From a virus (lineage: Duplodnaviria > Heunggongvirae > Uroviricota > Caudoviricetes), in IMG/VR virus record IMGVR_UViG_2565956719_000013: 41,123 bases of DNA, one strand, 5' to 3'. A program made the position numbers and the translations under genes. Positions 1 through 41,123 of the stretch are shown in pieces. The notes beneath the pieces were generated by a model, which worked only from the letters and a program-made list of their open reading frames with translations, was not told the origin of the DNA and searched no databases. How positions within the stretch are numbered: the first letter of the stretch is position 1; every line of letters begins with the position of its first letter.

Positions 1-516
1 ATGAAATTTAAAAAATGTCTTCTGCCTGTGGCAATGTTAGCGTCATTCACTCTGGCAGGATGCCAGTCAAATGCTGATGATCATGCCGCCGATGTTTATC
101 AAACCGATCAACTGAATACCAAACAAGAAACTAAAACCGTTAATATTATTTCCATTCTTCCCGCAAAAGTTGCCGTAGACAACGCCCAAAATAAACGGAA
201 CGCACAAGCCTTCGGCGCGCTTATTGGCGCTGTCGCTGGCGGTGTTATCGGCCACAACGTCGGGTCTGGCAGCAATTCCGGAACGACGGCAGGTGCAGTT
301 GGCGGCGGAGCTGTAGGCGCGGCAGCGGGTTCTATGGTGAATGATAAAACCTTAGTGGAAGGTGTTTCTTTAACATATAAGGAAGGCACCAAAGTGTATA
401 CCTCCACCCAGGTGGGTAAAGAGTGCCAGTTTACGACAGGTTTAGCCGTTGTTATTACCACGACGTATAACGAAACGCGTATTCAGCCAAATACCAAATG
501 TCCTGAAAAGAGCTAA
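1..516 (+). CDS. outer-membrane lipoprotein with glycine-zipper segment, function unknown
   Basis: ATG at position 1; signal peptide with lipobox LAGC; Gly/Ala-rich GxxxG run (GALIGAVAGGVIGH...AVGGGAVGAAAG); could be host flank or phage moron. Confidence 0.6.
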   Translation: MKFKKCLLPVAMLASFTLAGCQSNADDHAADVYQTDQLNTKQETKTVNIISILPAKVAVDNAQNKRNAQAFGALIGAVAGGVIGHNVGSGSNSGTTAGAVGGGAVGAAAGSMVNDKTLVEGVSLTYKEGTKVYTSTQVGKECQFTTGLAVVITTTYNETRIQPNTKCPEKS

Positions 517-531
517 TAATCAGGAGGAGTC

Positions 532-1071
532 ATGAAGAAAGTTTTTCTTTGCGCCATCTTAGCCTCCTTAAGCTATCCGGCTATCGCCTCATCATTGCAG
601 GATCAACTCTCGGCTGTCGCAGAAGCGGAACAGCAAGGTAAAAATGAAGAGCAAAGGCAGCATGACGAATGGGTCGCGGAGCGCAACAGGGAAATCCAGC
701 AAGAGAAGCAACGTCGCGCAAACGCCCAGGCCGCGGCTAATAAAAGAGCGGCAACGGCAGCAGCGAATAAGAAAGCTCGTCAGGATAAACTGGACGCCGA
801 AGCCACTGCGGACAAAAAACGCGATCAAAGTTATGAAGATGAGCTACGTAGCTTAGAGATTCAGAAACAAAAACTGGCGCTGGCGAAAGAAGAAGCCCGC
901 GTCAAGCGCGAAAACGAATTTATCGATCAGGAACTGAAGCACAAAGCTGCGCAAACCGATGTGGTGCAATCTGAAGCTGACGCAAACAGAAATATGACTG
1001 AAGGCGGTCGCGATCTGATGAAAAGCGTGGGTAAAGCAGAAGAGAATAAATCAGATAGCTGGTTTAACTAA
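532..1071 (+). CDS. secreted charged coiled-coil protein, function unknown
   Basis: AGGAGG RBS upstream of ATG 532; N-terminal signal peptide; remainder Lys/Glu/Ala/Gln-rich; stop TAA 1069-1071. Confidence 0.55.
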   Translation: MKKVFLCAILASLSYPAIASSLQDQLSAVAEAEQQGKNEEQRQHDEWVAERNREIQQEKQRRANAQAAANKRAATAAANKKARQDKLDAEATADKKRDQSYEDELRSLEIQKQKLALAKEEARVKRENEFIDQELKHKAAQTDVVQSEADANRNMTEGGRDLMKSVGKAEENKSDSWFN

Positions 1072-1110
1072 ACGATGTTAGTAACTTCAAACCTATAATT
1101 CTTTAGGATA

Positions 1111-1143
1111 AAAAAACCCTCTGTAGTAACAGAGGGTTTTGTT
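1111..1143. terminator. bidirectional intrinsic terminator between convergent genes
   Basis: stem CCCTCTGT (1117-1124) / ACAGAGGG (1129-1136), loop AGTA, A-tract upstream and T-tract downstream. Confidence 0.7.
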
Positions 1144-1289
1144 CATTCATAGTGCAGGGTCAAATCATTCCCACTCAATTATTTACGATAACCATAACCA
1201 ATTGAGTGATAACATTTTTCCAAATCTCAATTTTTCCCGTACCGTTTTATATACCGTCACCGGAAATCAGTACCATGAAAAATGCCATG

Positions 1290-1772
1290 CTATCTGGTCA
1301 AAGTGTCGTACTGTTTTTCGCAGACTCTTCCGGCTTCGGCTGCCCGGTCAGCATACTCTGCCAGTTGTCTGTTTCTCTCGAGAGATTTGCTGAGCACGTC
1401 GGCAAGCAAAACTCCGGTGTCTGCGGCTGACGACCCAGCGCCGACAATGGCGTTATACTGCCTGAGCTGCTCACGGATGGCAAAGAGTTGTTGCTGCAAC
1501 CGGCCAGCGCTAGCGGCAGCATCAAGAGCATCATTGCGCGCCTGGTCGATCCTCTGCTGAGCTTCACGTTCATTGGTCACTTTCTCCTGTTCGTAGTACT
1601 GACGAACTTTGTCTTCTTCGGCTTTGCGGTCTTCTTCCGCCTGAGCATACCCGGCATCGTACTGGCGACTGCCGTGTATATTCCAGGCAACCACTCCTGA
1701 TATGACCAGAACAGCAAGCACTGCCACGATAAGAAACTGTTTCCAGTATGCTTTTACGAATGCCCAGATCAT
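1290..1772 (-). CDS. Rz-like i-spanin (phage lysis protein)
   Basis: N-terminal TM helix then Glu/Arg/Gln-rich coiled coil; ATGA overlap with endolysin stop; contains an embedded out-of-frame lipoprotein ORF. Confidence 0.7.
1298..1534 (-). CDS. Rz1-like o-spanin lipoprotein embedded in Rz
   Basis: alternative frame inside Rz; [13 protein letters not shown] lipobox signal; Pro/Ser-rich; start chosen at ATGATG 1534-1529. Confidence 0.5.
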   Translation of the reverse strand: MMLLMLPLALAGCSNNSLPSVSSSGSITPLSALGRQPQTPEFCLPTCSANLSRETDNWQSMLTGQPKPEESAKNSTTL

Positions 1773-2398
1773 ACCGCCAGCACCTTACTGGCAGTGATGT
1801 ACCGCGCTCGCCGGTCGTCGATGCCGTTCCGGCCACCATTGATAATCAGAGTTACACGTGCAATATCGCCGGTATACTTCATGCATCCTTTGCTGGCGAA
1901 GAACCACGCCGCGCTACGAGCCGCATATCCGTCCTGCGCCAGCAGTTCAGGGCTCTCCAGCAGGTCAACCTTCAGACCGTTTCCGCAATCACGATAGTTA
2001 TTCAAACCGGTAATCTGGATAAGTCCGCGCCCTCGGTAATTCCAGCCATCACCAGGGGCATTGTTCCCCATGCGTTTGCTGTATACCAGATTTGCGATCG
2101 CGCGCTGGCGCTCAAGTGGCAATGGTGGTTCACCAGCACGGCGCCCCAGTGCATTAGCCTGCCCCTGAGTGAGACGCCCAGCCCGAACGAAGTTAGCCAG
2201 TCCGCTGACACTGTAGTTGAAATTCTCCTGCAACCTGGTGAAGCCCCCAGACTCATGCCCGACTTGAGCAATAAACATTGCCTGATCTTCTGCTTTGCTG
2301 ATACCAAACTCTTTCATCGCAGAAGTTATATGCGAGAACCAGCGTGCGGCCAGTGCCTCGCTGATACCAGCAGCTCGCTGGAATTGTTTAATCTCCAT
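1769..2398 (-). CDS. endolysin, glycoside hydrolase family 19 (chitinase-like) type
   Basis: ATG at 2398 with GAGG RBS; motifs [12 protein letters not shown] and GRGLIQITG recalled as GH19 lysozyme signatures; lies between holin and Rz. Confidence 0.75.
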
Positions 2399-2696
2399 GT
2401 TTAGACCTCGATACTTTAAAAATTTGAACGACGTTACCGCGCGTTTTAATAACCGCAGCCAGCATGACAGCGTTGATAATGACCTCAGATAAATCCACAG
2501 CCATTGGCGTACGTAACCAGATTGCATAGGCGACTCGAACAGGAATACTGGCCGCAGCAACAATCAGGAAATAAGCAAGCCATCCTCCCCACCTTCGATG
2601 TTGAGAGCCGTTACGCCGGAATGTGACAACGCGAATTGCTATGCCAGTGCAAATAACTGCATTAGTGATAAGCAAAAAAAACTCATGCGTTACCAT
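2388..2696 (-). CDS. small membrane protein of lysis cassette (holin/antiholin-like)
   Basis: GGGGAGA RBS; 2-3 predicted TM helices; overlaps holin end and endolysin start. Confidence 0.5.
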
Positions 2697-3087
2697 CGTC
2701 TTTTCTCCCCGGAATTAACTCGCGTGGATTATCGGAACGGTGATAGAGCCATATACCAATACGCACAGCGACAATTGCTGACACGAATGCGCCTGCAGAG
2801 AAAACAATCCCTTTTTCAAAAGAGTCCTGCGTGATGGTAGGGATCAGGCTGGCTATGCCGATAAGAATTGATGCTGCTGGTTTGTAAAAGAGAAGGCCGC
2901 AAAGAAAGCTGAGCATCGACAGGAGCACCCGGCGACGGATGGGGTACTCTACTGCAGAGGTAACAAAAATTACCGCCCCAGCCAAAGCCCCTAAAGCAAC
3001 CTCCGGAGGGACACCTGCAATAACTGCAGCAAGAGAACCAAAACTAAGCAACTGATTTAATTGCTCACTTGTTACTTGAGCAGACAT
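2683..3087 (-). CDS. putative holin
   Basis: AGGAGA RBS; several hydrophobic helices; charged C-terminus; first gene of lysis cassette. Confidence 0.55.
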   Translation of the reverse strand: MSAQVTSEQLNQLLSFGSLAAVIAGVPPEVALGALAGAVIFVTSAVEYPIRRRVLLSMLSFLCGLLFYKPAASILIGIASLIPTITQDSFEKGIVFSAGAFVSAIVAVRIGIWLYHRSDNPRELIPGRKDDGNA

Positions 3088-3370
3088 ACTTTCTCCTGTT
3101 TACTATCTATAAGCCAGTCAATTATTGATGACTAAACCCGCATAGTAAACCATATATGAATCATTATTGTTCCATATCATATATCTCAATAAAAGTACTA
3201 ATGATTTTACAGAACGAGCCAGCAGAGTGGGGGGGCAGTTGTACAGGAACCATAGACTTAATTTTGTATTTAATAATGCTATGGTGTAATAAACCTGAAC
3301 ATGTATTTAAAATACGTACTGATTCATGATAGAATTCAAAGATAACTTTTCACCAACTCCGTTTTTGATA

Positions 3371-3397
3371 CCCGCAATATTTTGCGGGCTTTTTTTT
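3371..3397 (+). terminator. intrinsic terminator oriented for + strand only
   Basis: stem CCCGCAA (3371-3377) / TTGCGGG (3382-3388), loop TATT, T8 tract 3390-3397 overlapping tailspike stop; no T-tract in the minus orientation. Confidence 0.5.
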
Positions 3398-6300
3398 AAC
3401 GTTCTTCCAGAGACTGAACCCGCTCTTTTATCTTATCCATTTCTCTGCGCTGCCATGCTGCCTCGATATAGAATAAGAGATCAGGTCTGACCCCCCATCT
3501 AGATCCTGCTGGCGTTATTTCAACGCGCTCAATGATGTCTTCTATTACCATCACTGGATTATCATCCTCATCAACAATGATGCTCCCGTCATTATCAGTC
3601 AGCGGCATTTCCCTTTGGCCAGTAATGACGTCATCATATACTGCGGGATAATCGTCATAGCAAAGAAAGGCATAGCGGCATGTTGTGCTTTCTTCTTCCA
3701 TGAGTCCGTGAGAAATAAGAACATCACGAAGTTGCTGCGCGATTACACCATGATGTATCCTCGCCCCTTCTTCCCCCTTTATAGCGACAGCGTTCAGCCA
3801 TTTATAAGCGATATACCTGACGTCACCCCAGGCATCCAGCAATGTTTCGTCAGGAGAGACCGGCTCTGTCTTTAATGTTCCGTCACTGGTAACCACAGGA
3901 TTGGAGCCAAGATAAACTATCGAGAACCTGTTTCCCGGACCACCAAGAGCATTTACATTATCAAGATAAGGTTTAACATCTCCGTTCTCAAAAAGATGTT
4001 CGAGTGCGTTATATACCGCGCGACGTGGAGTACTGCTTCTGGAACCATGCAACGTTATCATTGCACCATCTGCTGAAGACGTTGTTTCACCGCCGCTAAC
4101 GATTAATCTCTGAGCGGTAACATCATCAGACGGTACTTTCTTCGCAATAATGGCGTAATTACCCTCAAGTTTGACTTCCGCGCGAACTTGTCCTGATGTA
4201 CCTGCATGGACAGTCAGTGACTGGACGGCAACATCATCTGTGAAATCAACGGGTACAGGAACCGTCCTCACGCCTGACGTCGACATAAAAGTAGGAAGCG
4301 TTCTGTTAGGAGTGGCTCCGTAGACAAAATCCCTTGAAACAAATTCTTCCTGTTTAATTTTCACCCTGAAACAATACAAATCAGCCGGGTGACCATCGTG
4401 AACATAAGGATATTTTCTGTTGTTATCCCCTATGCTCCATGGGTTTAGAAAGTCTTCCCCACCGAAAATGTAGTACAGCCAGTTGTCTTTGATACAAACT
4501 GAACCAACACCAACCGCAGAGTTAACTATTCCGCCCTGATAAATCTGATCAGTAACATTAACCCACTCTACATTATCCAGACTCCACTCATTGACGTTAA
4601 CTCTGGTCATAAATGTTCTTGGATAATTTCCTGCATAACGGTTATCAGGTTCTCCTCCTTCCCACTCACCAAATGCGCGCTCACTGCCAAAAATAATCAG
4701 CTCATCGCCAACTTTGGCAAAAGGAAGGTTTGAGTGATGAACATTATTTGGGAAGCGAAGAGAATTCCATGATGTACCTAAATCAGAGCTTCTGTGCAAT
4801 GAACTACCGGGTTGAGTACTTAATGTCCCCCTGGTCGTCAGATACAGAATGCCATCATAATATTTTACACATGGCTCAGATGCATTCGCCTCATATTCTG
4901 CAGGTATGCGTCTGCGAACAAAGCTACCAGGAGAACCGAAAGCATCAGAGAAATAGAGTATCCCAAGCTCGCGTGGACCAATATCACCATTATGGTAGCC
5001 AACAGCAAAACTGTTATCGCTAATCGTCGCAAAACTGTGAATCTCAGTAACAGGAGTGCTTCCGTCAACAAAAGAAGGAATAGTTCCAAGACTGGTTTTT
5101 CTCCATGGTGACGAGTGAAATGATGTACCAAAACTCCAGTATCTACCCTCGTTATTCTGATCCACATCCTGGGTATTTTGCGTCGTAACTGTAAAAGTAT
5201 TTTTATCAATAACAGTAGTCACCGTCATATTCCCGGTAACACCTGTAACACCAGAGTTTGAGAAGTTGACAAAATCACCAGCAAATAATCCGTGATCAGT
5301 AATGCGAATATAAGCGACTTGCTGATTTGCTGCTTTCGTTATACCACCATAAACGCGAAGGCTGCGACTCATTGGGCGATCCCACAACTCTGCAACCTGC
5401 AGTTTATTTCCGCTCACGGTCCGCGTCTCAATTACAGCAAAAAGGCGATTTCTGACAACCCCCATACTCATGCAGTGATAGTTAACTGTGGGATAGTTTT
5501 CATGTAAATCTGTAAGCCATTCCGGCGTTGTCCAGGTCTTCCCGTCATCTCCTGAGCGAACCCATGCAACATGGAGGTTATTTACACCATGGCGGTCTCC
5601 AGCCATAAAAGGCGCATAGATGACATTGTCATATACAAACGTTTTATCCTGCGTCCAGGCGTTGTACCACGGTGTATCTGTAATTTTAAATAACTCTCCC
5701 TGGATAAAATCTTCAGAAGCATAAAAAAGAGGCTGGCCCGGTATTCTCTCAAATAAAAAACGAGCATTTTTAAATCGACTGACATCCGGAAGAGTTGATA
5801 CTTTAAAAGTAAGCCCTAATCCGTCAATTTTATAACCTGGAGATGAGGCTTCAAGGCACGCGCTTATTGCAGTGGAATCGTCATTTATACCATCACCAAC
5901 AGCTCCAAAATCTTTGGGGCTAATAGCATCACGCATTTTATCCTGGAACGTTCGGTACACAGCCCCAGAACCATACTGAATAAACCAACCAAAACCACCA
6001 ACAACCCCGGCGATTGCAGCATCGACATAATTACGCATTGAGCGATTATTTACAGCGTCCTGCTCAAATGATGGATCTGCAAGGTTAGAAATTTTGTTTT
6101 GCTTTGCATCGTAATATTTTGCAAGCAAAGATGGTTTCATCAATGCACGTCTGAACCACCCAAAACATTGCTGGATCAGCATCGTCAGGTAGTCAAAGGC
6201 ATCTTCATGCACTTCGGGGAAAAATTTTCCCTGATTGCGAAGGTCTGTCTCCTGCACTACATCAAGCACACGATCTATCGTAATTCGCCATCCAGTAGCA

Positions 6301-6515
6301 AGCGGAGACGGAAGAACCACAGAACCGCCACTATAAGTGCCCGCCCCAGTTACCGTATAACCGGTATCCAGAACCAATTCTGTTACGTTCCCGTTCAGGT
6401 CAGACACCTGAACAACCAGGTCTGATTTTCTGAAAATTCGAAAAGTATACGGAAACGACGTCGTAACGCCGTTACCGGTGTATTCGTTGTGGTCAACTTC
6501 GGTTGAGACCGTCAT
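3396..6515 (-). CDS. tailspike: T7 gp17-like N-terminal anchor, Asp-box domain, C-terminal intramolecular-chaperone-type domain; candidate endosialidase
   Basis: 1039 aa; GGAG RBS; N-terminal pattern resembles T7 tail-fibre N-domain; two Asp-box motifs (SGDDGKTW, SSDLGTSW); C-terminal SDGTLK...IAQQ... region resembles S74-type autocleaving chaperone domains. Confidence 0.85.
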   Translation of the reverse strand: MTVSTEVDHNEYTGNGVTTSFPYTFRIFRKSDLVVQVSDLNGNVTELVLDTGYTVTGAGTYSGGSVVLPSPLATGWRITIDRVLDVVQETDLRNQGKFFPEVHEDAFDYLTMLIQQCFGWFRRALMKPSLLAKYYDAKQNKISNLADPSFEQDAVNNRSMRNYVDAAIAGVVGGFGWFIQYGSGAVYRTFQDKMRDAISPKDFGAVGDGINDDSTAISACLEASSPGYKIDGLGLTFKVSTLPDVSRFKNARFLFERIPGQPLFYASEDFIQGELFKITDTPWYNAWTQDKTFVYDNVIYAPFMAGDRHGVNNLHVAWVRSGDDGKTWTTPEWLTDLHENYPTVNYHCMSMGVVRNRLFAVIETRTVSGNKLQVAELWDRPMSRSLRVYGGITKAANQQVAYIRITDHGLFAGDFVNFSNSGVTGVTGNMTVTTVIDKNTFTVTTQNTQDVDQNNEGRYWSFGTSFHSSPWRKTSLGTIPSFVDGSTPVTEIHSFATISDNSFAVGYHNGDIGPRELGILYFSDAFGSPGSFVRRRIPAEYEANASEPCVKYYDGILYLTTRGTLSTQPGSSLHRSSDLGTSWNSLRFPNNVHHSNLPFAKVGDELIIFGSERAFGEWEGGEPDNRYAGNYPRTFMTRVNVNEWSLDNVEWVNVTDQIYQGGIVNSAVGVGSVCIKDNWLYYIFGGEDFLNPWSIGDNNRKYPYVHDGHPADLYCFRVKIKQEEFVSRDFVYGATPNRTLPTFMSTSGVRTVPVPVDFTDDVAVQSLTVHAGTSGQVRAEVKLEGNYAIIAKKVPSDDVTAQRLIVSGGETTSSADGAMITLHGSRSSTPRRAVYNALEHLFENGDVKPYLDNVNALGGPGNRFSIVYLGSNPVVTSDGTLKTEPVSPDETLLDAWGDVRYIAYKWLNAVAIKGEEGARIHHGVIAQQLRDVLISHGLMEEESTTCRYAFLCYDDYPAVYDDVITGQREMPLTDNDGSIIVDEDDNPVMVIEDIIERVEITPAGSRWGVRPDLLFYIEAAWQRREMDKIKERVQSLEER

Positions 6516-6710: not shown

Positions 6711-6968
6711 ATGCAGCAGTATCACTATCCACTGGAAGACGGATTTACCGAAAGGATTCACACGCCGGGAGGCGTCAGGTCACTGGTGGAGGGATCGCAC
6801 TTGATGAAATTACTCCGGGATCTCGATAAGGATGGATTTAATGTCGATGGCCCACTTGCCGAACTGACTGCACTGATTAACTACGTCACCAGCTCACAGA
6901 TGTCTATGCAGGATCTGCAAACACATCTCGACTATTGTGCCGAACAATTACGAAAACAAACCAGATAA
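6711..6968 (+). CDS. SOS-regulated small protein, paralog of antirepressor C-terminal domain (candidate antirepressor)
   Basis: GGAGAAG RBS; 85 aa; ~35-40% identical by eye to C-terminal ~80 aa of the 7284..7994 product (shared GV, LM-LL, DG, AELT, QTH positions). Confidence 0.6.
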   Translation: MQQYHYPLEDGFTERIHTPGGVRSLVEGSHLMKLLRDLDKDGFNVDGPLAELTALINYVTSSQMSMQDLQTHLDYCAEQLRKQTR

Positions 6969-8080: not shown

Positions 8081-8139
8081 GAAAGCATTTTTAATCTTCC
8101 CTTCAAAACGCGTCCTGTAGCCAAACATGGGAGGACGAA

Positions 8140-8772
8140 ATGAGAACAAATACAACAAGAAAAGCGATGCCATACATTATCCCAGAAGCAGATTTCGATA
8201 GAAAACTGAACATGTCTGAGAAGAACACTAGTCACACCGAAAGCTACTTAGCGAAAGGTGTGGTTGATTTCGTTCTTCCGGGATTCACAACACCTTATGG
8301 TTATCGCCTTGTAAAATCTTGTAATGGCGATCATTACAGAATGATTACTACCAGCGATACTCCAGAAACGGTGTATGCGGTTAAGTTAATCTTTCGGGAA
8401 GATATCGTCGAAGCCAAAAGAACATGTACGCAGATCATGGTATGGCGTACGCCTAATGTTATTCATGACCGTGCTGTTCATGGTTTGCCTCAGATTTTTT
8501 TTCAGTTCTTCCTAGAGCAATATGCGATCGTTGTATCTGATGAGCAACAAACAATCGATGGGAGAAGATTCTGGGAAAGAATGATTTCTTGGGCTATAAA
8601 CACCCCGGGATATAATGTATACGTTTCAGATGGCTCTGAAGAAGATAGACCTCTTAGCTTCATGACATCATGGGATGATTTCTATAGCCAGTGGGCTGAT
8701 TTCTGTTGGGGCAGTGATAAAGATGTGCATACCCACAGACTACTGGTTATAAGCAAAGATAAACTGCATTAA
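8140..8772 (+). CDS. hypothetical protein, 210 aa, orphan accessory gene
   Basis: GGGAGGA RBS; own upstream dyad and downstream terminator; no motif recognised. Confidence 0.65.
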   Translation: MRTNTTRKAMPYIIPEADFDRKLNMSEKNTSHTESYLAKGVVDFVLPGFTTPYGYRLVKSCNGDHYRMITTSDTPETVYAVKLIFREDIVEAKRTCTQIMVWRTPNVIHDRAVHGLPQIFFQFFLEQYAIVVSDEQQTIDGRRFWERMISWAINTPGYNVYVSDGSEEDRPLSFMTSWDDFYSQWADFCWGSDKDVHTHRLLVISKDKLH

Positions 8773-8777
8773 TAGAA

Positions 8778-8798
8778 GCCCGCAGCGCGGGCTTTTTT
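8778..8798 (+). terminator. intrinsic terminator
   Basis: GCCCGC-AGC-GCGGGC hairpin followed by T6. Confidence 0.7.
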
Positions 8799-8870
8799 GT
8801 GGACGAAACAAAAGTCAGTGCTACACTCATTGACGCCACATTGAGGTGGCTTATAGATGGAAATGTCACA

Positions 8871-9032
8871 ATGAAAAAAGCATTTGCTGCACTGTTCGTT
8901 TTGTTGTCTCTGGTAGCTTCAACTCAGGCCTTTGCCGGTCGTTGTCAGCACGACAGCGATACCGCCGCTGACGGCTCCCGCTGCGGTGGGCGTTCTGCGG
9001 ATTCCCGCCCGGGCGGCGGTGGCATTCGTTAA
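8871..9032 (+). CDS. small secreted Cys/Gly-rich peptide, hypothetical
   Basis: ATG 8871; signal peptide MKKAFAALFVLLSLVASTQAFA; 53 aa; weak RBS. Confidence 0.3.
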   Translation: MKKAFAALFVLLSLVASTQAFAGRCQHDSDTAADGSRCGGRSADSRPGGGGIR

Positions 9033-9054
9033 AAACAAGGCCGCGAAAGCGGCC
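9031..9054 (-). terminator. intrinsic terminator ending the leftward late operon
   Basis: GGCCGC-GAAA-GCGGCC hairpin (9039-9054) with T-tract in minus orientation (A5 at 9031-9035 on + strand). Confidence 0.5.
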
Positions 9055-9055
9055 T

Positions 9056-9067
9056 GTGACATGTCAC
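9056..9067. repeat. 12-bp palindrome GTGACATGTCAC (copy 2)
   Basis: perfect palindrome overlapping TGA stop (9064-9066) of 9064..9360, 1 bp from terminator hairpin. Confidence 0.9.
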
Positions 9068-9360
9068 GTTCCTTTTCTGAATGATAGCCGTTCGAAAAAT
9101 GATGACATTCCACCGCAGACAATAGCAAAGATGATCCCACCAAAGAAGAGAAGGCCAGCCTGCCACCACTCCCACCGCCATACATCCACAGCACCAACCA
9201 TACCAACAATCGCTCCAACAAATGGAATATAGCTCACGATGAAAGCAATGGGGGCTGCAATTATCCAGTGCAATCCCCACCATGATTCAAGCCCAGCCAT
9301 AATTGCTGCCAACTGAAAAAGGCCAACGACGATATAAACAATGAATCCTATCGCTTGCAT
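9064..9360 (-). CDS. small multi-pass membrane protein, hypothetical
   Basis: AGGTGA RBS; 98 aa, 3-4 hydrophobic helices, Trp-rich; last gene of late operon. Confidence 0.55.
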   Translation of the reverse strand: MQAIGFIVYIVVGLFQLAAIMAGLESWWGLHWIIAAPIAFIVSYIPFVGAIVGMVGAVDVWRWEWWQAGLLFFGGIIFAIVCGGMSSFFERLSFRKGT

Positions 9361-25961: not shown

Positions 25962-26038
25962 GTGGCATTAGCTCAGTCGGACAGAGCAACCGCCTTCTAA
26001 GCGGTTGGTCGCAGGTTCGAATCCTGCATGCCACGCCA
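25962..26038 (+). tRNA. tRNA-Arg (anticodon UCU)
   Basis: 77 nt; acceptor stem GTGGCAT/ATGCCAC, anticodon stem ACCGC/GCGGT with loop CTTCTAA, T-arm GCAGG-TTCGAAT-CCTGC, discriminator G, CCA encoded. Confidence 0.85.
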
Positions 26039-26241: not shown

Positions 26242-26613
26242 ATGAGTGAAAAAGACATTGAATCTGAAATTCAGGCTAAAGGTTTAGCCGCGCCGCGCGT
26301 TACGCCAGACCATATCGAGAGCATTATTGCTCAGGAGGCATATTTCACAGCAGAAGATGGTGCCTTTGGCGTAGCCATAAAAGCGAAACATACTGGCGGA
26401 GAGGTAAACTACCAGCCGCACGAATCACTTTCTCTGCTGACGTTCTGCGTCCTGGTGCTGCGCAACGGCTTCACCGTCACCGGAGAGAGCGCCTGTGCAA
26501 GCCCGGAAAACTTTGATGCAGAAATTGGTCGGAAGATTGCCCGACAGAATGCTGTAAACAAAATCTGGATGCTTGAAGGTTACTTGCTGAAGCAGAAGTT
26601 AAGCGAGCAATAA
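26242..26613 (+). CDS. Gp49-like small phage protein (N4 Gp49 / Sf6 gp66 family, from memory)
   Basis: AAGGTGAG RBS; 123 aa; C-terminal pattern FDAEIGRKIARQNAVNKIWMLEGYLL recalled for this family. Confidence 0.45.
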   Translation: MSEKDIESEIQAKGLAAPRVTPDHIESIIAQEAYFTAEDGAFGVAIKAKHTGGEVNYQPHESLSLLTFCVLVLRNGFTVTGESACASPENFDAEIGRKIARQNAVNKIWMLEGYLLKQKLSEQ

Positions 26614-26617
26614 CACC

Positions 26618-26629
26618 GTGACATATCAC
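26618..26629. repeat. near-palindrome GTGACATATCAC (copy 3, one mismatch)
   Basis: 5 bp after Gp49-like stop and 4 bp before terminator hairpin. Confidence 0.8.
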
Positions 26630-26633
26630 AAAC

Positions 26634-26660
26634 AGCCAGCCTATGAGCTGGCTTTGTTTT
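26634..26660. terminator. terminator between convergent Gp49-like gene and large terminase
   Basis: AGCCAGC (26634-26640) / GCTGGCT (26647-26653), loop CTATGA, then TTTGTTTT. Confidence 0.55.
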
Positions 26661-26703
26661 ATCCTCATCAGAGGATATCAACAACATTATCCCCTCAAGC
26701 GGA

Positions 26704-28179
26704 TTAAGCATAGGGATCGTAATCTGTAATGGCCCTTCCCTGCTGGCTTTGCTGTCCTGGTATATTTATGCGTTTCGAGACCGGGAAAGCAAACGTCAGC
26801 AGTAGCGCATCGCCTTTACCCGGCGAACGCCCAAGCCGCTCCTTGATATCTTCCTTCGGTTCGATAACGATTTTACCGTCCACTCGAACTTTGTACTCTG
26901 CCGCCGACAGGTCGTCCGCTGTTTCCTGGTCATCCAGCATGCCGCCCAGCCTCAGCCATGTCTTGCATGAGTTGAACATCTCCCCACGCTTGTTGAGCAT
27001 CTGCGGGTCAGTAGACGCGCCACCGAACGGAACAAGTTGCCATGTACGACCCCAGCCGTCACCGATTGACTTCAAACCGGTTCCGTAACCGAAGTCGATG
27101 AACACCGCGTCAGCCTGATACTGGTCTTCAAAGTCAGCGATACGCTTCGCCATAATCAGATCGTCGGTAGTCTTGTTGCCAGTCCACAGCACCTTACTGT
27201 GTAGCCCCTGCCGCAGGTATATCACCGCGTCATCAACGCCTGAATATGCCGGGTCAACACCGATTATCACCGGAGCATGTGCCACCTGCGCAGCGGTTAC
27301 CACCCGTTTCATTGCCTCGTCAGTAAGACCGGTAGGGATAAACTGCAATTCAGATGCATCAGGGAATATGCCACGCACACGGATTTTAACGAAGTCGCTA
27401 TCTTCCCCGTAGTCATCAACCCATTTCTGCAACTGCTGTTTGTTGGTGCCTTCCACCGTCCTGCTGTCAATCTGCGCAGTTTTCCAGCGGTGTTTGTATT
27501 TGCGGAAACATTCACGGAAACGCCCGGTGTTACGTGTAGGGTTTCCGAAAGCCACCCAGATAATCTCAGTGTCTTCGTCCGTTAGCGCACCCTCGGCAAC
27601 TTCCCACACCAGATCCGCAATGTTCGACGCTTCATCAAATACCACGATGATGCGTTTACGCTCGTTGTGTAGTCCGGCGAATGCCTCAGTGTTGTGCTCA
27701 GACCAGGGGATTGCGTCAGCTCGCCACCGCTTGTCGTGCCCAGGGTCATTGCTGTACATCGCGGTAGCGGTACAGGTAAACCAGTCTTTCGTGATAGCAA
27801 GGTTTGACCACTTGATAATTTCCGGCCAGGTCTTCGTTCGTAGCTGGTTGTCGGTGTTGGCGGTCACCACGACCTTACAATCCTCGCAAGTGGACATGCC
27901 CCAGTTGATCAGCATTGAGATGAATGCGGATTTACCAATACCGTGACCAGAAGCACGTGCCAGCATAAGCGGCTGATATCGCGTCTCTGGATTCTGCAGG
28001 TGATCACGTATCTCTCGGAACGCATCAGCCTGCCACTGACGTGGGCCGGTGGCATGTGCCAGTTCAGTCCCCTCTTCCCCCCATGGGAACGCATAGAGGG
28101 CATAGCCAAGCGGATCGTGAGTGAACCCTGCAATATCCTCGATTAACTGCTCTTCAGGAGATAACGCTGTATCTGTCAC
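26704..28179 (-). CDS. terminase large subunit
   Basis: 491 aa; Walker A-like ARASGHGIGKS and Walker B-like IIVVFDEAS; ATGA overlap with small subunit. Confidence 0.85.
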   Translation of the reverse strand: MTDTALSPEEQLIEDIAGFTHDPLGYALYAFPWGEEGTELAHATGPRQWQADAFREIRDHLQNPETRYQPLMLARASGHGIGKSAFISMLINWGMSTCEDCKVVVTANTDNQLRTKTWPEIIKWSNLAITKDWFTCTATAMYSNDPGHDKRWRADAIPWSEHNTEAFAGLHNERKRIIVVFDEASNIADLVWEVAEGALTDEDTEIIWVAFGNPTRNTGRFRECFRKYKHRWKTAQIDSRTVEGTNKQQLQKWVDDYGEDSDFVKIRVRGIFPDASELQFIPTGLTDEAMKRVVTAAQVAHAPVIIGVDPAYSGVDDAVIYLRQGLHSKVLWTGNKTTDDLIMAKRIADFEDQYQADAVFIDFGYGTGLKSIGDGWGRTWQLVPFGGASTDPQMLNKRGEMFNSCKTWLRLGGMLDDQETADDLSAAEYKVRVDGKIVIEPKEDIKERLGRSPGKGDALLLTFAFPVSKRINIPGQQSQQGRAITDYDPYA

Positions 28180-28775
28180 TGATTGCCATCCTGACGTTCT
28201 TTCAGTCTCTTCCTGGCTGCCGCTATGCGATCAGCAATTGTCACATTCACATTAACATCCAGGCGTTCTTTGAATGCGTTGACGTCGACGTGCTTACCAA
28301 TCAGTTCGAGGTTCTTCACCTTGTCAGGCCATTTAATTTTTTTGAGGATGCCAACCAGCTCTTTCTCGTCTCCACGGCCTTCGAACATGTCGGCCAGTTC
28401 GAAACCTGTCAGGTACTGCCGCCAGACCTTAGGCCATTCCGAGACCGGCTTGATGCTCATATCGTCGTTGAGAATGTCAATCACGTCCATCTGGTCGATC
28501 TCCACCAGGCGCATGAGAACGTAATCAGCACTGACGCGCATTCGTTTGTTGCGCTCCTCCATCAACTCGGCAATCCGTTTTTGAATGCGTTCATCGCGCA
28601 TCATGACACTGGCTTTAACTGCCGCTGTATTTGGGGAGAATCCTGCGTTAATCGCTGCCTGAGTCTGGTTTTCAGGCGTTTTGATGTATGACTGGCAATA
28701 AGCCTCCTGCATTGCTGTTAGTGGCTTAAATTGCGTTGATTTGCGTTTATAGGTTTTAGGTTCAGCAGGCATCAT
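28176..28775 (-). CDS. terminase small subunit
   Basis: start moved to ATGATG 28775-28770 (MMPAEPK...); immediately upstream of large terminase. Confidence 0.65.
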   Translation of the reverse strand: MMPAEPKTYKRKSTQFKPLTAMQEAYCQSYIKTPENQTQAAINAGFSPNTAAVKASVMMRDERIQKRIAELMEERNKRMRVSADYVLMRLVEIDQMDVIDILNDDMSIKPVSEWPKVWRQYLTGFELADMFEGRGDEKELVGILKKIKWPDKVKNLELIGKHVDVNAFKERLDVNVNVTIADRIAAARKRLKERQDGNQ

Positions 28776-28782
28776 AACCACC

Positions 28783-28814
28783 GTGGTAATAGTTACCGTT
28801 GTGGTAATAGTACC
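28783..28814. repeat. two direct copies of GTGGTAATAGT(T)ACC upstream of terS
   Basis: 28783-28797 and 28801-28814; each is a GGTAA-N3/4-TACC inverted arrangement. Confidence 0.8.
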
Positions 28815-28818
28815 ATGC

Positions 28819-28844
28819 AAAATAAAGCCGCCATAGTTGGCGGC
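28819..28844 (-). terminator. intrinsic terminator immediately upstream of terS
   Basis: GCCGCC (28827-28832) / GGCGGC (28839-28844), loop ATAGTT; minus-strand T-tract UUUAUUUU (28826-28819). Confidence 0.6.
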
Positions 28845-28885
28845 AGTATTCAAAACCCATCAAATTCATCATGCATAATCTACTC

Positions 28886-28897
28886 GTGACATGTCAC
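28886..28897. repeat. 12-bp palindrome GTGACATGTCAC (copy 1)
   Basis: perfect palindrome overlapping TGA stop (28894-28896) of the Cys-rich gene, 41 bp before terminator. Confidence 0.9.
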
Positions 28898-29232
28898 ACT
28901 ATTAATTTCGTTTCATGCCAGCCTTTAGTCACCCAGCATTGCGAGTCACCATTACACGGGCATGAATTAACGGGAACTCTCTCGCCGCACTTACCGCAAA
29001 GTTTTCTGCTGATCGATTTTATACGCCCGCGCACACGTGCATCATCCTGGCGGATCAGCAGCGCGATGTACTCGGCCATTTCATAGGGATCGCGACCAGG
29101 GCGCCGGGCGGCGCAGTTCCGCTCAAGCATTTCAATTTCCTGAGCATCAAGCACAATCTCCAGCTTACGCACACCAGATGCAGCTTGTCTGGCTCTCTGA
29201 GCGGCTTTGCGCTCTGCTGCTGATTTAGCCAT
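28894..29232 (-). CDS. basic protein with C-terminal Cys cluster (zinc-finger-like); candidate regulator
   Basis: ATG 29232 (ORF-track start 29235 is TTG); Arg/Ala-rich N-terminus, CGKCGERVPVNSCPCNGDSQC; last gene before terS. Confidence 0.5.
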   Translation of the reverse strand: MAKSAAERKAAQRARQAASGVRKLEIVLDAQEIEMLERNCAARRPGRDPYEMAEYIALLIRQDDARVRGRIKSISRKLCGKCGERVPVNSCPCNGDSQCWVTKGWHETKLIV

Positions 29233-29506
29233 CAATATTTACCTTTATCGCGAACACCTTTACCGGTTTATCGCCGAAGTGCGGATGTGTGATTGTCTTG
29301 ATTTCATATCCGTCATACGGGACGTCAATTCTGCGGCTGGAATCGTCGCGCTTCGGATATCCCTTTGTGATAATCAGGCGGTCATACTCGCGGAACATAA
29401 TTCGCTTATTCCAGTAGTCATTACACAGGCGATACTCTTCCGTTTTCTCTCCGCGAATCATGGCATCGAAGTATTCACCTTTAACGGCAAGTTGCAGGTT
29501 AGCCAC
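29225..29506 (-). CDS. small protein, possibly ASCH/PUA-like fold
   Basis: GTG start 29506 with strong AAGGAGGAAGG RBS; 93 aa; family assignment tentative. Confidence 0.4.
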   Translation of the reverse strand: MANLQLAVKGEYFDAMIRGEKTEEYRLCNDYWNKRIMFREYDRLIITKGYPKRDDSSRRIDVPYDGYEIKTITHPHFGDKPVKVFAIKVNIDG

Positions 29507-29822
29507 GACCTTCCTCCTTTGGCTTGTGAATTTGTATCGTCATGCCGCTTTGAGTGGTGACTACAACGACAGAACCAGGCTGAAGACTGTTAAGATTGAA
29601 TGCTTCGTAAAACGAAGCCAAGGCCAGCGCTTTTTTATTCTTTCGGTTCCACCAACGCCATCCATTGCTACAGGCTACACTGACAATCCACTGCCCACTC
29701 CTGTAAGCCATATAAAACCAGATGAGCAAAACCTGAATGAATGCTATCCAGTCAATAATCGTATATTTCGCGAAGGAGTCCATCACTTCACCTCCTGTCG
29801 TATATTTCGCGAAGGAGTCCAT
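29499..29822 (-). CDS. small membrane protein; N-terminus spans a 39-bp tandem duplication
   Basis: ATG 29822 overlaps DUF551 stop (TGATG); identical RBS+ATG recurs 39 bp downstream at 29783; one TM helix. Confidence 0.45.
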   Translation of the reverse strand: MDSFAKYTTGGEVMDSFAKYTIIDWIAFIQVLLIWFYMAYRSGQWIVSVACSNGWRWWNRKNKKALALASFYEAFNLNSLQPGSVVVVTTQSGMTIQIHKPKEEGRG

Positions 29823-29836
29823 CACTTCACCTCCTG
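29759..29836. repeat. perfect 39-bp tandem duplication (2 copies)
   Basis: TCGTATATTTCGCGAAGGAGTCCATCACTTCACCTCCTG at 29759-29797 and 29798-29836. Confidence 0.9.
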
Positions 29837-30580
29837 CGGCGGTTCTGGTAGCGGCATCCAGAACAAGGCGTTCCCTAACCACGATAAAGTGCCGTCGCTC
29901 AACTCCACGTATTCCCCTTGTACCTGTCCTGCCATATACTCGCCGTGCTTTGAATAAATTAAAATCCAATCATCTTGAGGGGGCATTCGCTCACTACAGC
30001 TTATCCAACCATCCGGAGTTACCGGAGAGTTGCCAGCCAGTCTACGCAAAACAGCCTTAACAGCCTCAATACGGTCATCATCGCAATTTTCCAGCGTATC
30101 TATGCGGTCGAGCATGATGATGGCGTTATCAATATCAGGATTGCCAGTCCACTCATTACCGCGATTGGATTCGGCAGCCTGGTTGCCAGATGCTGGCTGA
30201 TTGTCGGCTTGGCTATAGCTAACAGCACGGCAGGCATCCTCTACGCCTTTAACTGCATCTGCACAGTAGTTATAGCGATTGCATTCCACTAACTTCTGCT
30301 TGAGATTTTCAATTGCTTGCGCGACATCAGCCTGTATTACGGGAACGGGGGGAGCGGCGTATACTTCAATTGTCCCATTATCAATAGGCCACTCTCCATC
30401 CTTGATGTAGTCACTTGTACCGTCAACTTGCTGTTCTGCAATGTGGAATGCACCTATTGGTTTTGTCTCAAGCGATGCCAGTGCAATTCGTGCCACTTCC
30501 ATTTGTTCGCCACGGGTAAGCCCGTTATCAAGCGGATTTTTAATGAATAATTCGATACGTTCTTTGGTAATAGTGGTCAT
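29822..30580 (-). CDS. DUF551-domain protein
   Basis: AAGGTGA RBS; C-terminal WISCSERMP...FWMPLPEPP matches DUF551 pattern from memory. Confidence 0.6.
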   Translation of the reverse strand: MTTITKERIELFIKNPLDNGLTRGEQMEVARIALASLETKPIGAFHIAEQQVDGTSDYIKDGEWPIDNGTIEVYAAPPVPVIQADVAQAIENLKQKLVECNRYNYCADAVKGVEDACRAVSYSQADNQPASGNQAAESNRGNEWTGNPDIDNAIIMLDRIDTLENCDDDRIEAVKAVLRRLAGNSPVTPDGWISCSERMPPQDDWILIYSKHGEYMAGQVQGEYVELSDGTLSWLGNALFWMPLPEPPQEVK

Positions 30581-30582
30581 AG

Positions 30583-30774
30583 CTATTTCACCTTAATCTC
30601 AACATTTCGCAGCTTTAGCTCTACTGGCAGGTCTGACTTTCCGGTTAATGCTAATGCGAGATTTTCTGGAGTAATGAGAGCCGTTATTGTTTTCCCCATC
30701 GCCAGACGAATAATCATTCGTATCTCGCGATCGTCACATGCTCCCGGCCGAACAATTGAGATTTGTCCGTTCAT
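30583..30774 (-). CDS. small hypothetical protein
   Basis: ATG 30774 two nt after upstream stop; 63 aa. Confidence 0.4.
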   Translation of the reverse strand: MNGQISIVRPGACDDREIRMIIRLAMGKTITALITPENLALALTGKSDLPVELKLRNVEIKVK

Positions 30775-30775
30775 C

Positions 30776-31585: not shown

Positions 31586-32097
31586 TCTTCAAGGGATTTC
31601 TCCGCATATTCACCGGACAGGCCATCAATCGGGTGCGGTTCATTAGCCAACTCTTCTTTCGCTGACAGAATCATGCGTGTAACGTCGAAAACTTCACGTA
31701 AAGACTTATTGATAAATCCGTGGTTGAAAGCAGCAGCAAGACGGCTTGCGGTATAGTTAATCCCCTCGTTGCGAGCCTCCGCACGAATTTCAGCCAGAAA
31801 AGCATCGGTGGCTGGAGTTTCGCTGTGGTGCAGGGCATCGTTGATAATCATTGCAGCAACTCCGGCCTGCCCTGCATCCGTGACCGACACATGCTCAAGA
31901 GTTACAGCCATTGCATGTTTCAGCCCAGCATTCTCCGCCGCCAGCGCATTAGCACGCACCAGTTGCACTTCCAGTTGCGTTGCCAAATCGCTGATCAGCT
32001 TTGCCACACTGCGCATATCAACGGCACCACATTCTGCTTTCAGTTCCGAAGCCATCTCATGCCCGGCGGCAACTAACCCTTTGATATTACTTTCCAT
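31549..32097 (-). CDS. hypothetical protein
   Basis: GAGGGT RBS; 182 aa, Ala-rich helical. Confidence 0.5.
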   Translation of the reverse strand: MESNIKGLVAAGHEMASELKAECGAVDMRSVAKLISDLATQLEVQLVRANALAAENAGLKHAMAVTLEHVSVTDAGQAGVAAMIINDALHHSETPATDAFLAEIRAEARNEGINYTASRLAAAFNHGFINKSLREVFDVTRMILSAKEELANEPHPIDGLSGEYAEKSLEEWAEQIRKGGNQ

Positions 32098-32158
32098 CTT
32101 TACCCTCGCTTATCCACATAACTTATTGATTACATTGATAACTAAAAAGATCGTCGAT

Positions 32159-32503: not shown

Positions 32504-32506
32504 GAT

Positions 32507-32521
32507 TTACCTCTTAGGTAA
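32507..32521. promoter_or_regulatory. operator-like dyad TTACC-N5-GGTAA overlapping RBS
   Basis: TTTACCtcttaGGTAAT, 4 nt upstream of ATG 32503. Confidence 0.5.
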
Positions 32522-32568
32522 TTAAAAACCACATAAGACACGAAATCAATAGATTTTAGAACATTTTA

Positions 32569-32583: not shown

Positions 32584-32620
32584 TTATCGAGACGTAAAAA
32601 AATGCGCTATCGCGCTGGTA

Positions 32621-39866: not shown

Positions 39867-41123
39867 TTATTTATTACTGTCTTCCATCCACCTCTCAAAC
39901 TTCGACGGGGAGAACGGAATCAGATCTGTATGCTCCCCGTTAATCCAGGAATCAATCATATCGGCCCACTGCTGCAACATGTAGGCGCGCTGTCTGGCGT
40001 ATTCCGCTTTGTTATATACGGCGCGCACACCTTTCTGCTCATGTGCCAGAGCCTTTTCAATCCAGTCTGAAGGATAACCAGCCTCATGCAACAACGTACT
40101 GGCTGTACGGCGCATATCGTGTACGGTGAAGCCCTGAATATGCTCACCATCTTCATTTATTATTTTCACCGTTCTGTCGATCAGAGAGTTCAGCGCGGCA
40201 TTAGATAATGGCTTCCGGAAATTGTAACGACCAGGAACCAGATATTCACTTCCACCAGCGCACATCTGCAACCCGACCAATATATCCTGAGCCTGTTTAG
40301 GCAGGTAAATAACATGCGCCCGGCTTCCCTTCATGCGGTCTGAAGGAATTGTCCATGTCCATTTTTTAAAATCTATTTCATCCCACGTTGCATTGGTGAA
40401 TTCGCCCTTACGAACCATAGTGATAAGCACCAGTTTTAAAGCCATTTTCATAGTGCCCATAGCACCAATGGCATCCAGCGTGCGGAAGAACAGGCCAATT
40501 TCTTCTGGTGTCAGTGTTCGCTCTCGTGGTTTAAATATGGCGATAGACGAAGGTTTAATGTCAGCCGCAGGATTAAACAAACCATGACCACGGTCATTGG
40601 CGTGACGGTATACGCTGCTGATGATCTCCCTGGCCTGTACTGCTGTTGCCCGACCACCGCGTTCGACAATCCGGTCACACAAATCACGAACCATCGATGT
40701 GGTAATTTCAGCCATCATTTTGTTACCAAGAACAGGAAGTATGTCACGGTCGATCACCGCCTGCTTCATTGCGCGGGTACTGTCAGCCAGGATGACGTGT
40801 TTCATATAACTGTCGGTATGTACCGCAAACGTCTCGGCACCACGAATCTTTTTGATACCGTCACGTTTAGCCGCAGCCGGTGACTGGCCTGCTTTAAGCA
40901 GCTTCTTTGCAGCAATCAGTTCTTCTCGCGCTTCTGCCAGGCTGATACCGTCACGCCCATACTGCCCGATTACCAGTGTTTCGCGGCGACCGTTGATACG
41001 GTAGTCATAGCGAAACGAGACCGTGCCTGACGTAAGCACAGCTACATACAGCCCGTCACGATCGGAGACCTTGTACAGTTTGTCCTGCGGCTTGAGGTTT
41101 TTTAATTTTGTATCGGTAAGCAC
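39867..41123 (-). CDS. tyrosine integrase (P4-like family); 5' end at or just beyond window edge
   Basis: 418 aa in window; N-terminal LTDTKLKNLKP...DRDGLYVAV pattern; C-terminal catalytic region with HDMRRT and final Tyr-containing segment; first in-window codon is GTG. Confidence 0.85.
   Translation of the reverse strand: MLTDTKLKNLKPQDKLYKVSDRDGLYVAVLTSGTVSFRYDYRINGRRETLVIGQYGRDGISLAEAREELIAAKKLLKAGQSPAAAKRDGIKKIRGAETFAVHTDSYMKHVILADSTRAMKQAVIDRDILPVLGNKMMAEITTSMVRDLCDRIVERGGRATAVQAREIISSVYRHANDRGHGLFNPAADIKPSSIAIFKPRERTLTPEEIGLFFRTLDAIGAMGTMKMALKLVLITMVRKGEFTNATWDEIDFKKWTWTIPSDRMKGSRAHVIYLPKQAQDILVGLQMCAGGSEYLVPGRYNFRKPLSNAALNSLIDRTVKIINEDGEHIQGFTVHDMRRTASTLLHEAGYPSDWIEKALAHEQKGVRAVYNKAEYARQRAYMLQQWADMIDSWINGEHTDLIPFSPSKFERWMEDSNK

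Follow-up and report, generated by a model that had tools for sequence, protein, structure and literature searches.

Endosialidase tailspikes give phages their specificity for the K1 capsule of the Escherichia coli that causes neonatal meningitis and sepsis, they serve as reagents for the removal of polysialic acid, and their spread over different phage backbones is a textbook case of tailspike domain swapping. The backbones on which an endosialidase was seen include those of the T7-like K1F, the Vectrevirus K1E, the P22-like CUS-3, the Kagunavirus K1G (where the enzyme is annotated as '63D sialidase'), and the ~150-kb phages ESCO5 and PNJ1809-36. In endoNF, the K1F enzyme, the beta-barrel domain is a polysialic-acid binding domain.

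Several described systems lie close to the locus considered here. The tailspike of the virulent, T7-like phage K1F (gp17/endoNF; Kayfunavirus; GH58; structures 1v0e, 3gvl and 3gw6) has H350, R549, E581, R596 and R647 as its key catalytic residues (PMC12632334), and its GenBank record places the last codon of the mature gp17* at 910 and the first codon of the C-terminal domain at 911; a Ser-Lys dyad and an arginine of the stalk have roles in autocleavage by the S74 chaperone domain (PMC8326128). CUS-3 (Lederbergvirus, P22-like; CP000711, ABQ88383.1) is temperate and, like the prophage described below, has E. coli K1 as host; its tailspike siaK1, which derives from the K1 strain RS218, totals 981 aa with a P22 gp9-type head-binding N-terminus; GenBank credits it with endo-alpha-sialidase activity (evidence IDA, PMID 16689790). 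The Salmonella phage epsilon15 and the E. coli phage phiV10, both of the genus Uetakevirus, carry O-antigen-specific tailspikes according to the literature (epsilon15 preprint). Finally, the Uetakevirus vB_EcoP_ZX5, reported in 2022, is a viable temperate phage forming plaques on an O87:H52:K1 strain, and the relevant paper describes the same three tailspike domains as those found here, together with the attachment-site core ATTGAGTGGGAATGATT (PMC9782041).

The window, i.e., the whole stretch of 41,123 nucleotides that was analysed, is a Uetakevirus (epsilon15-like) prophage at the guaA/yfgI attachment site. Its tailspike gene is one intact ORF on the minus strand (Table 1), occupying exactly the coordinates assigned to it in a first-pass annotation that had left the strand unstated; the frame read on the plus strand over the same interval is riddled with stops, which places the gene on the minus strand. 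The start codon ATG (6515-6513) is preceded at a distance of 7 nt by a Shine-Dalgarno sequence (GGAG, 6526-6523), and the stop codon lies at 3398-3396. The hairpin beyond it, which has an A-run (gene strand) and a T-run (plus strand) as its flanks, looks like a terminator and is listed as putative.

Table 1. Features of the tailspike gene, its product and the surrounding prophage (positions are those of the window; aa, residues of the 1039-aa protein).
Feature	Residues (aa)	Position	Strand	Evidence
Complete tailspike gene, endosialidase (endo-N-acetylneuraminidase) precursor; 1039 codons + stop		3396..6515	-	ORF list and translation
Particle-binding (anchor) module, epsilon15/Uetakevirus tailspike type	1-204	5904..6515	-	epsilon15 gp20/phiV10 identity, Foldseek
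Endosialidase N-terminal extension, End_N_terminal	205-271	5703..5903	-	Pfam E 6e-32
Catalytic six-bladed beta-propeller, End_beta_propel (PF12217)	272-721	4353..5702	-	Pfam E 1.4e-233, full profile coverage
Asp-box SGDDGKTW	321-328	5532-5555	-	S.D.G..W pattern match
Beta-barrel inserted in propeller, End_beta_barrel (PF12195)	383-465	5121..5369	-	Pfam E 3.2e-46, full profile coverage
Asp-box SSDLGTSW	576-583	4767-4790	-	S.D.G..W pattern match
Stalk, triple beta-helix, End_tail_spike (PF12219)	722-876	3888..4352	-	Pfam E 7.5e-78
C-terminal intramolecular chaperone domain (Peptidase S74)	877-1039	3399..3887	-	Pfam and PDB 3gw6
Exchanged receptor-binding module, CUS-3 siaK1-like (2393 nt)	233-1030	3425..5817	-	99.7% DNA identity; megablast and blastn
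G+C-rich hairpin, putative terminator, 8 nt 3' of tailspike stop		3371..3388		Terminator scan and sequence
Lysis cassette, directly 3' of tailspike		1290..3087	-	Pfam
Holin-family genes		2683-3087, 2388-2696	-	Pfam Phage_holin_8, Phage_holin_3_7
GH19 endolysin		1769-2398	-	Pfam Glyco_hydro_19
Spanin-like gene, DUF2514		1290-1772	-	Pfam DUF2514
Attachment-site core ATTGAGTGGGAATGATT, prophage end beside yfgI		1163..1179	-	Exact single match vs 0 expected by chance
Integrase gene, opposite prophage end		39867..41123	-	98.7% DNA identity to ZX5 site-specific integrase (ZX5 8083-9322)

Pfam searches of the 1039-aa protein returned all four endosialidase domains plus Peptidase_S74 above the curated cut-offs, and a PDB search aligned residues 205-876 with the endoNF crystal structures 1v0e and 3gvl at E = 0. 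With E-values of 1e-233 for the propeller profile and 0 for the endoNF structures, assignment of the endosialidase domains is beyond chance, and a sialidase beta-propeller carrying two Asp-boxes, as originally proposed, is present. The S.D.G..W pattern occurs exactly twice in the protein, on both occasions within the propeller, and the two motifs align with SGDDGQTW and SRDIGQTW of K1F endoNF. Comparison with the catalytic residues of endoNF, which the first-pass annotation had suggested as a check, demonstrated that H309, R515, E547, R562 and R613 of the propeller are the aligned equivalents of H350, R549, E581, R596 and R647, respectively, and that none is altered; when the residues concerned with autocleavage are included, 8/8 functional endoNF residues are conserved. 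The K1F-type architecture claimed for the protein is likewise upheld by 61.6% identity to K1F gp17 over residues 196-1039, throughout which the order of domains from N-terminal extension to chaperone, both Asp-boxes and the position of cleavage correspond. The window protein differs from endoNF in a 7-residue insertion in the FVDGSTP region (~aa 482-488).

The stalk forms the C-terminal end of the predicted mature protein, the 1v0e_A chain ending in ...GSNPIVT where the aligned query reads ...GSNPVVT876. Beyond this triple beta-helix, Peptidase_S74 (PF13884) scored 40.6 bits (cut-off 22) over the C-terminal residues 877-937, and the endoNF chaperone structure 3gw6 matched residues 757-1038 (PDB search, E 4.3e-92). 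The motif SDGTLK (residues 877-882; window 3870-3887) supplies the first residues of the C-terminal domain, exactly where a chaperone domain had been said to begin, although its length was found to be 163 residues rather than ~150. In the alignment S877, K882 and the stalk residue R863 occupy the positions of endoNF S911, K916 and R897; their conservation and the two matches favour the autocleaving chaperone domain that had been envisaged, with cleavage predicted, by homology with the 910/911 boundary of K1F, to fall between T876 and S877 by means of the S877-K882 dyad plus R863.

At the other end of the protein, the resemblance to the T7 tail-fibre anchor noted in the first-pass annotation survived as a remote likeness of fold, but the close relative proved to be the epsilon15 tailspike. 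Residues 1-165 are 71.5% identical to epsilon15 gp20 and 68.5% identical to the phiV10 tailspike; the module also matched PDB 28lx_A/8ck1 (Dpo31/Dpo36; E 1.5e-32) and the first 160-205 positions of >20 different PHROG tail spike and tail fibre families. The Pfam family Phage_T7_tail (PF03906), by comparison, was recorded below its gathering score (15.9 vs 25.2 bits, E 0.011; best stretch aa 135-161), and membership of the T7 gp17 family was rejected; the N-terminus was classed instead as an anchor of the epsilon15 type whose fold is T7-like. Foldseek searches were conducted with an AlphaFold model of residues 1-205 (32 homologues, mean pLDDT 66) that is confident only over aa ~6-85, mostly below pLDDT 60 over aa 87-205, and used for fold-level assignment only. 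They gave Carin-1 8ck1_B (E 3.5e-11) as well as T7 gp17 (7boz_a, E 3.1e-4; 7ey9_a, E 1.5e-4; 7ey7_a, E 3.7e-3), the latter matches having a probability of 1.0 and 15-17% identity; the large rmsd values of the search reflect the partial confidence of the model. For aa ~6-125 the model supports a fold found at the N-termini of podovirus fibres and spikes, that of T7 gp17 among them, at the level of the fold and not of its details. K1F, by contrast, has a true T7 gp17-type anchor, which has only its fold in common with the anchor of the window protein (33/155 aligned residues identical).

The receptor-binding parts of epsilon15 and phiV10, two phages which share both backbone and genome position of the gene with the window, are unrelated to that of the window protein, and the alignment with epsilon15 gp20 ends at residue 165. 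The counterpart of the remainder lies in CUS-3. At gene nt 699 (window 5817), within the N-terminal extension, DNA identity to siaK1 leaps from ~50% to >99%, and the module that starts there contains 9 mismatches in all, whereas just beyond both of its ends identity is ~40-50%. Residues 233-1025 are near-identical to siaK1 (2-3 substitutions), with 450/450 propeller and 155/155 stalk residues the same, while the final 14 residues differ and the P22-type head-binding domain is replaced by the epsilon15-type anchor. As judged by these alignments, the protein is a chimera of modules in which the anchor is joined, within residues 205-233, to a CUS-3-like endosialidase module. Its origin may have involved two steps, an older, divergent endosialidase having been overwritten by a CUS-3 allele, a possibility relevant to residues 193-232, which are ~42% identical to every endosialidase compared. 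A single crossover in the conserved cap region would explain the junction equally well, because epsilon15-type spikes with unrelated receptor-binding domains also share residues 166-204 and the GAxGDGxxDD motif region next to them.

The specificity for polysialic acid (K1) that had been proposed gains support from the complete identity of residues 272-876 to CUS-3 siaK1, an enzyme assayed according to its GenBank record, and from the K1 host on which the near-identical ZX5 forms plaques; on this evidence the window protein would be a K1 endosialidase. That its target might instead be another polysaccharide, such as the alternating alpha-2,8/2,9 polysialic acid of K92 or some other sialic-acid capsule, is extremely improbable: although the specificity is a predicted one, and a more distant homologue in a Mannheimia phage (37% identity) indicates that the fold also occurs outside K1 phages, the propeller and stalk are those of an enzyme from a K1 strain, the host of ZX5 is K1, and the gene resides in the well-known K1 strains APEC O1, IHE3034 and APEC O18. 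These strains are among the 72/5426 complete E. coli genomes in which the full-length gene was found.

The genomic setting closely follows that of ZX5, with which most of the window shares 94-99% identity. Both combine an epsilon15-like backbone with an att core at the 3' end of guaA, and they differ in mosaic patches of the early region and in accessory genes between the antirepressor and tail genes. Similarity to ZX5 stops at the att core, leftward of which the sequence is that of the APEC O1 chromosomal flank (RefSeq yfgH/yfgI); with att core, integrase and chromosomal flank all located within the window, the phage is temperate, as had been supposed. The lysis genes are arranged in identical order in ZX5 and APEC O1, and the tailspike gene itself shares 99.7% DNA identity over its full length with the ZX5 tail gene and 99.7-99.9% with a RefSeq gene annotated 'endosialidase catalytic beta-propeller domain-containing protein'. 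The ZX5 tail protein also comprises 1039 aa, and differs from the window protein by 6 amino acids; the window allele, unlike that of ZX5, agrees with CUS-3 at residues 826, 866 and 891.

These comparisons bear on whether the gene might be in decay, left over in a cryptic prophage from which no working tailspike is made, given that it lies in a chromosome and that many prophages are defective. Such decay is nevertheless very unlikely: the ORF of 1039 codons is intact and has lost none of the functional residues, its product is only 6 residues removed from the tail protein of a viable, plaque-forming phage, and the window retains a complete complement of genes for structure, lysis, regulation and integration, collinear with those of ZX5.

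Genes of conversion or defence beside the spike were considered and discounted. The small ORFs at 8140-8772, 6711-6968 and 9064-9360 matched no PADLOC family and only PHROG families of unknown function, with an additional weak antirepressor-type match for 6711-6968. In CUS-3, neuO and the integrase come after the tailspike gene; here the lysis cassette takes that place, and, unlike in CUS-3, no neuO-like acetyltransferase adjoins the spike in the window.

With high confidence, therefore, the gene product can be regarded as a receptor-destroying tailspike, belonging to a temperate, epsilon15-like podophage (Uetakevirus) whose host is E. coli K1. The mechanism proposed is extrapolated from endoNF and CUS-3 siaK1, both characterised homologues, and the activity from sequence identity to the CUS-3 and K1F enzymes. 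The 1039-aa precursor would trimerise, after which the chaperone domain would remove itself, the T876/S877 bond being cut by the S877-K882 dyad with the aid of R863, to leave a mature spike of 876 aa. The epsilon15-type module (residues 1-204) would plug the trimer into the tail hub, an attachment inferred from family membership because the N-terminal model is confident only over aa ~6-85. The beta-barrel and stalk would then bind alpha-2,8-polysialic acid, and the six-bladed propeller, through its five conserved catalytic residues, would cleave it endolytically, so that the virion could bore its way across the K1 capsule and reach the outer membrane.

Several K1 strains, including IHE3034, APEC O18, EC69 and ST95-32, harbour both the epsilon15-type gene and a CUS-3 copy, the two prophages often lying ~170 kb apart in one chromosome; against the 72 genomes with the full-length epsilon15-type gene, ~154 were counted with the 5' end of the CUS-3 type. 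A comparison of 12 sequences over 2379 nt yielded 14 variable sites with a mosaic of haplotypes, and there is about an even chance that gene conversion or homologous recombination moves sequence between the endosialidase modules of these two unrelated prophages, the epsilon15-like one and the P22-like CUS-3. Alternatively, the near-identity to CUS-3 may reflect a single old acquisition, and the SNP mosaics between co-resident copies may be artefacts of assembly or polishing, a reading that is tenable if somewhat doubtful: the variable sites are few, and two 2.4-kb repeats at >99.6% identity are prone to cross-mapping of reads during polishing. Against this, an A at gene nt 1686 is private to the two copies in ST95-32, the CUS-3-type copy of APEC O18 retains its own 5' sites yet has, across nt 797-2671 at the least, the haplotype of the epsilon15 type, and different mosaics are evident in several independent assemblies.

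The interpretation offered in the first-pass annotation is thus correct, but the gene was already known, ZX5 having been published in 2022 and the gene annotated in dozens of genomes. The three-part architecture is indeed present, yet it is not a discovery, having been described for ZX5 (PMC9782041), and the window amounts to one more copy of the epsilon15-backbone endosialidase that adds nothing to that paper and the RefSeq annotation. The sole fresh point suggested by the data, one of modest value, concerns the many K1 strains with two prophages and the SNP mosaics between their copies. Should the co-resident, near-identical modules recombine, they would constitute a natural system for studying the exchange of receptor-binding genes between prophages; and if the proposed exchange is true, two receptor-binding genes would evolve in concert inside double lysogens.

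The interval 3396-6515 is occupied on the minus strand by one open reading frame of 1039 codons, as given by the ORF list and translation, with GGAG 7 nt upstream of its ATG at 6515. The coordinates and motif strings of the first-pass annotation were all as written, strand being absent from that claim; a plus-strand reading was rejected owing to stops throughout the frame. Only two matches to S.D.G..W were found in the whole protein. A G+C-rich hairpin (3371-3388) lies 8 nt past the stop, preceded by an A-run when read along the gene strand and followed, on the plus strand, by a T-run; it scored as a terminator on the plus strand only, though the neighbouring genes are on the minus strand.

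A Pfam scan of the tailspike returned five domains, all exceeding curated cut-offs. Structures of endoNF, the reference endosialidase of phage K1F (1v0e, 3gvl and others), matched residues 205-876 with E = 0, endosialidase entry 4hiz matched the same span (E 2e-271), and the endoNF chaperone-domain structure 3gw6 matched residues 757-1038 (E 4e-92). The proposed endosialidase beta-propeller with two Asp-boxes and the C-terminal chaperone domain opening with SDGTLK are thereby both supported. In the suggested comparison with endoNF catalytic residues, a multiple alignment gave counterparts for all listed functional residues. Deep mutational scanning of K1F (PMC12632334) is the source for the catalytic roles, and PMC8326128 that for the Ser-Lys dyad and R897. 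The K1F GenBank record puts the last codon of the mature spike at 910 and the first of the released C-terminal domain at 911, a boundary that predicts cleavage of the tailspike between T876 and S877.

Features of the tailspike and of the surrounding prophage
Feature	Tailspike residues	Window position	Evidence or role
End_N_terminal	205-271		Pfam E 6e-32
End_beta_propel	272-721		Pfam E 1.4e-233
End_beta_barrel, inserted	383-465		Pfam E 3.2e-46
End_tail_spike	722-876		Pfam E 7.5e-78
Peptidase_S74	877-937		Pfam 40.6 bits, cut-off 22
Asp-box SGDDGKTW	321-328	5532-5555	pattern match
Asp-box SSDLGTSW	576-583	4767-4790	pattern match
SDGTLK	877-882	3870-3887	
endoNF H350	H309		catalysis
endoNF R549	R515		catalysis
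endoNF E581	E547		catalysis
endoNF R596	R562		catalysis
endoNF R647	R613		catalysis
endoNF R897	R863		autocleavage
endoNF S911	S877		autocleavage dyad
endoNF K916	K882		autocleavage dyad
Lysis cassette (DUF2514, GH19 endolysin, two holins)		1290-3087	
Integrase		39867-41123	right end of window

BLASTP with the full-length query gave 61.6% identity to K1F gp17 (over residues 196-1039), 56.8% to K1E gp47 and 55.1% to the tailspike of K1G, which carries the annotation '63D sialidase'. Among 5426 complete E. coli genomes, 72 contain a full-length copy of a gene that RefSeq names 'endosialidase catalytic beta-propeller domain-containing protein' and that is 99.7-99.9% identical to the tailspike gene; APEC O1, IHE3034 and APEC O18 are among them. 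Gene nt 699-3091 (window 5817-3425) are 99.7% identical to siaK1 of the P22-like prophage CUS-3, and DNA identity drops sharply beyond either end of this block, to about 40-50%. In protein, propeller and stalk show 100% identity to CUS-3, with only 2-3 differences over residues 233-1025. In the CUS-3 record, endo-alpha-sialidase activity is annotated under evidence code IDA (PMID 16689790).

The N-terminal 165 residues share 71.5% identity with epsilon15 gp20 and 68.5% with the tailspike of phiV10, and the first 160-205 residues match N-termini in more than 20 PHROG spike and fibre families of varied length; database homologues sharing this N-terminus, conserved to about residue 204, carry unrelated receptor-binding domains. 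The CUS-3 identity block and the recurrence of the N-terminus on unrelated spikes thus mark the tailspike, on the alignments, as a chimera of an epsilon15-type anchor and a CUS-3-type endosialidase module joined within residues 205-233, a region containing the widely conserved cap motif GAxGDGxxDD. P0010, a 277-aa Kluyvera cryocrescens protein, bears the annotation 'N terminal extension of bacteriophage endosialidase'. It shares 80% identity with the anchor module and diverges into unrelated sequence past about residue 205; its alignment indicates that other spikes, from beyond E. coli, also have the anchor and junction motif.

The N-terminus had been likened to the T7 tail-fibre anchor, a resemblance that holds at the level of fold but not of sequence family: Pfam Phage_T7_tail reached 15.9 bits where its cut-off requires 25.2, whereas a predicted model of residues 1-205, confident for about 6-85, matched T7 gp17 (7ey9_a, E 1.5e-4; 7boz_a, E 3.1e-4; 15-17% identity) among N-terminal fibre and spike domains of other podoviruses. 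Ahead of these in the PDB search came the N-terminus of the Carin-1 fibre (8ck1_B, 48% identity, E 3.5e-11). The domain is a member of the epsilon15 anchor family; the paper on the temperate Uetakevirus phage ZX5 labels it 'T7 like' (PMC9782041).

By analogy with characterised homologues, the precursor would trimerise and its C-terminal domain would excise itself through the S877-K882 dyad, leaving an 876-aa mature spike that its epsilon15-type N-terminus would fix to the tail hub. Beta-barrel and stalk, which bind polysialic acid in the endoNF structure literature, would do likewise here, while the propeller would cut the polymer endolytically, opening a path through the K1 capsule.

The left end of the window matches the APEC O1 chromosome at yfgH and yfgI (RefSeq), and similarity to ZX5 starts at the ZX5 att core ATTGAGTGGGAATGATT, which occurs once (1163-1179). 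The lysis cassette is followed by the tailspike, a BRO-N antirepressor, ZX5-collinear virion genes and the integrase. Within the DUF2514 (Rz-like) gene (1290-1772, minus strand) lies an other-frame ORF (1298-1573, minus strand) whose peptide contains the lipobox-like motif LALAGC; an embedded ORF with a lipobox is the usual layout for an Rz1-type outer-membrane spanin. Between antirepressor and virion genes, a 210-aa ORF (8140-8772, plus strand) in a low-GC patch (about 0.41-0.42) had no Pfam or PADLOC match and only PHROG 1349 (function unknown); APEC O1 has a 633-bp hypothetical gene at this position and ZX5 two different annotated ORFs, the ZX5 blastn alignment here reaching only 8018. The ORF is a possible accessory (moron) gene. 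A tRNA-Arg (anticodon TCT; 25962-26038, plus strand) between the terminase and portal regions is also annotated in the APEC O1 copy. The terminase and early/regulatory region (26328-34492) is mosaic relative to ZX5, with patches 94.5-98.4% identical separated by gaps (e.g. 29232-30452, 33151-34492) lacking any blastn alignment of at least 200 nt, which is ordinary modular variation among such prophages.

The att core and integrase bear out a temperate phage. The ZX5 paper describes a temperate phage integrating at the guaA 3' end, forming plaques on an O87:H52:K1 strain and encoding in ORF7 a T7-like N-terminus, endosialidase and endosialidase chaperone; the reading of a temperate phage with a K1 endosialidase is consequently correct and already published (PMC9782041).

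Four strains (IHE3034, APEC O18, EC69 and ST95-32; loci L008-L015) are double lysogens, with epsilon15-type and CUS-3-type tailspike genes about 170 kb apart in each. In the shared 2379 nt (within window 3425-5817), 14 variable sites among 12 sequences, a small sample, sort into two main haplotypes plus mosaics. In APEC O18 the CUS-3 copy has the epsilon15-type haplotype over a stretch that begins at about nt 797 and extends to at least 2671. In ST95-32 the epsilon15-type copy has CUS-3-type bases at several sites, and the window allele has them at nt 2476, 2597 and 2671. A private A at nt 1686 is confined to the two copies, epsilon15-type and CUS-3-type, of ST95-32. These mosaics, the private SNP included, suggest that the endosialidase genes of the two prophages have exchanged sequence by recombination or gene conversion; they may alternatively represent polishing cross-talk between near-identical repeats.

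Overall, the first-pass observation was confirmed and its interpretation supported. Only the apparent exchange between co-resident endosialidase genes may merit more study.
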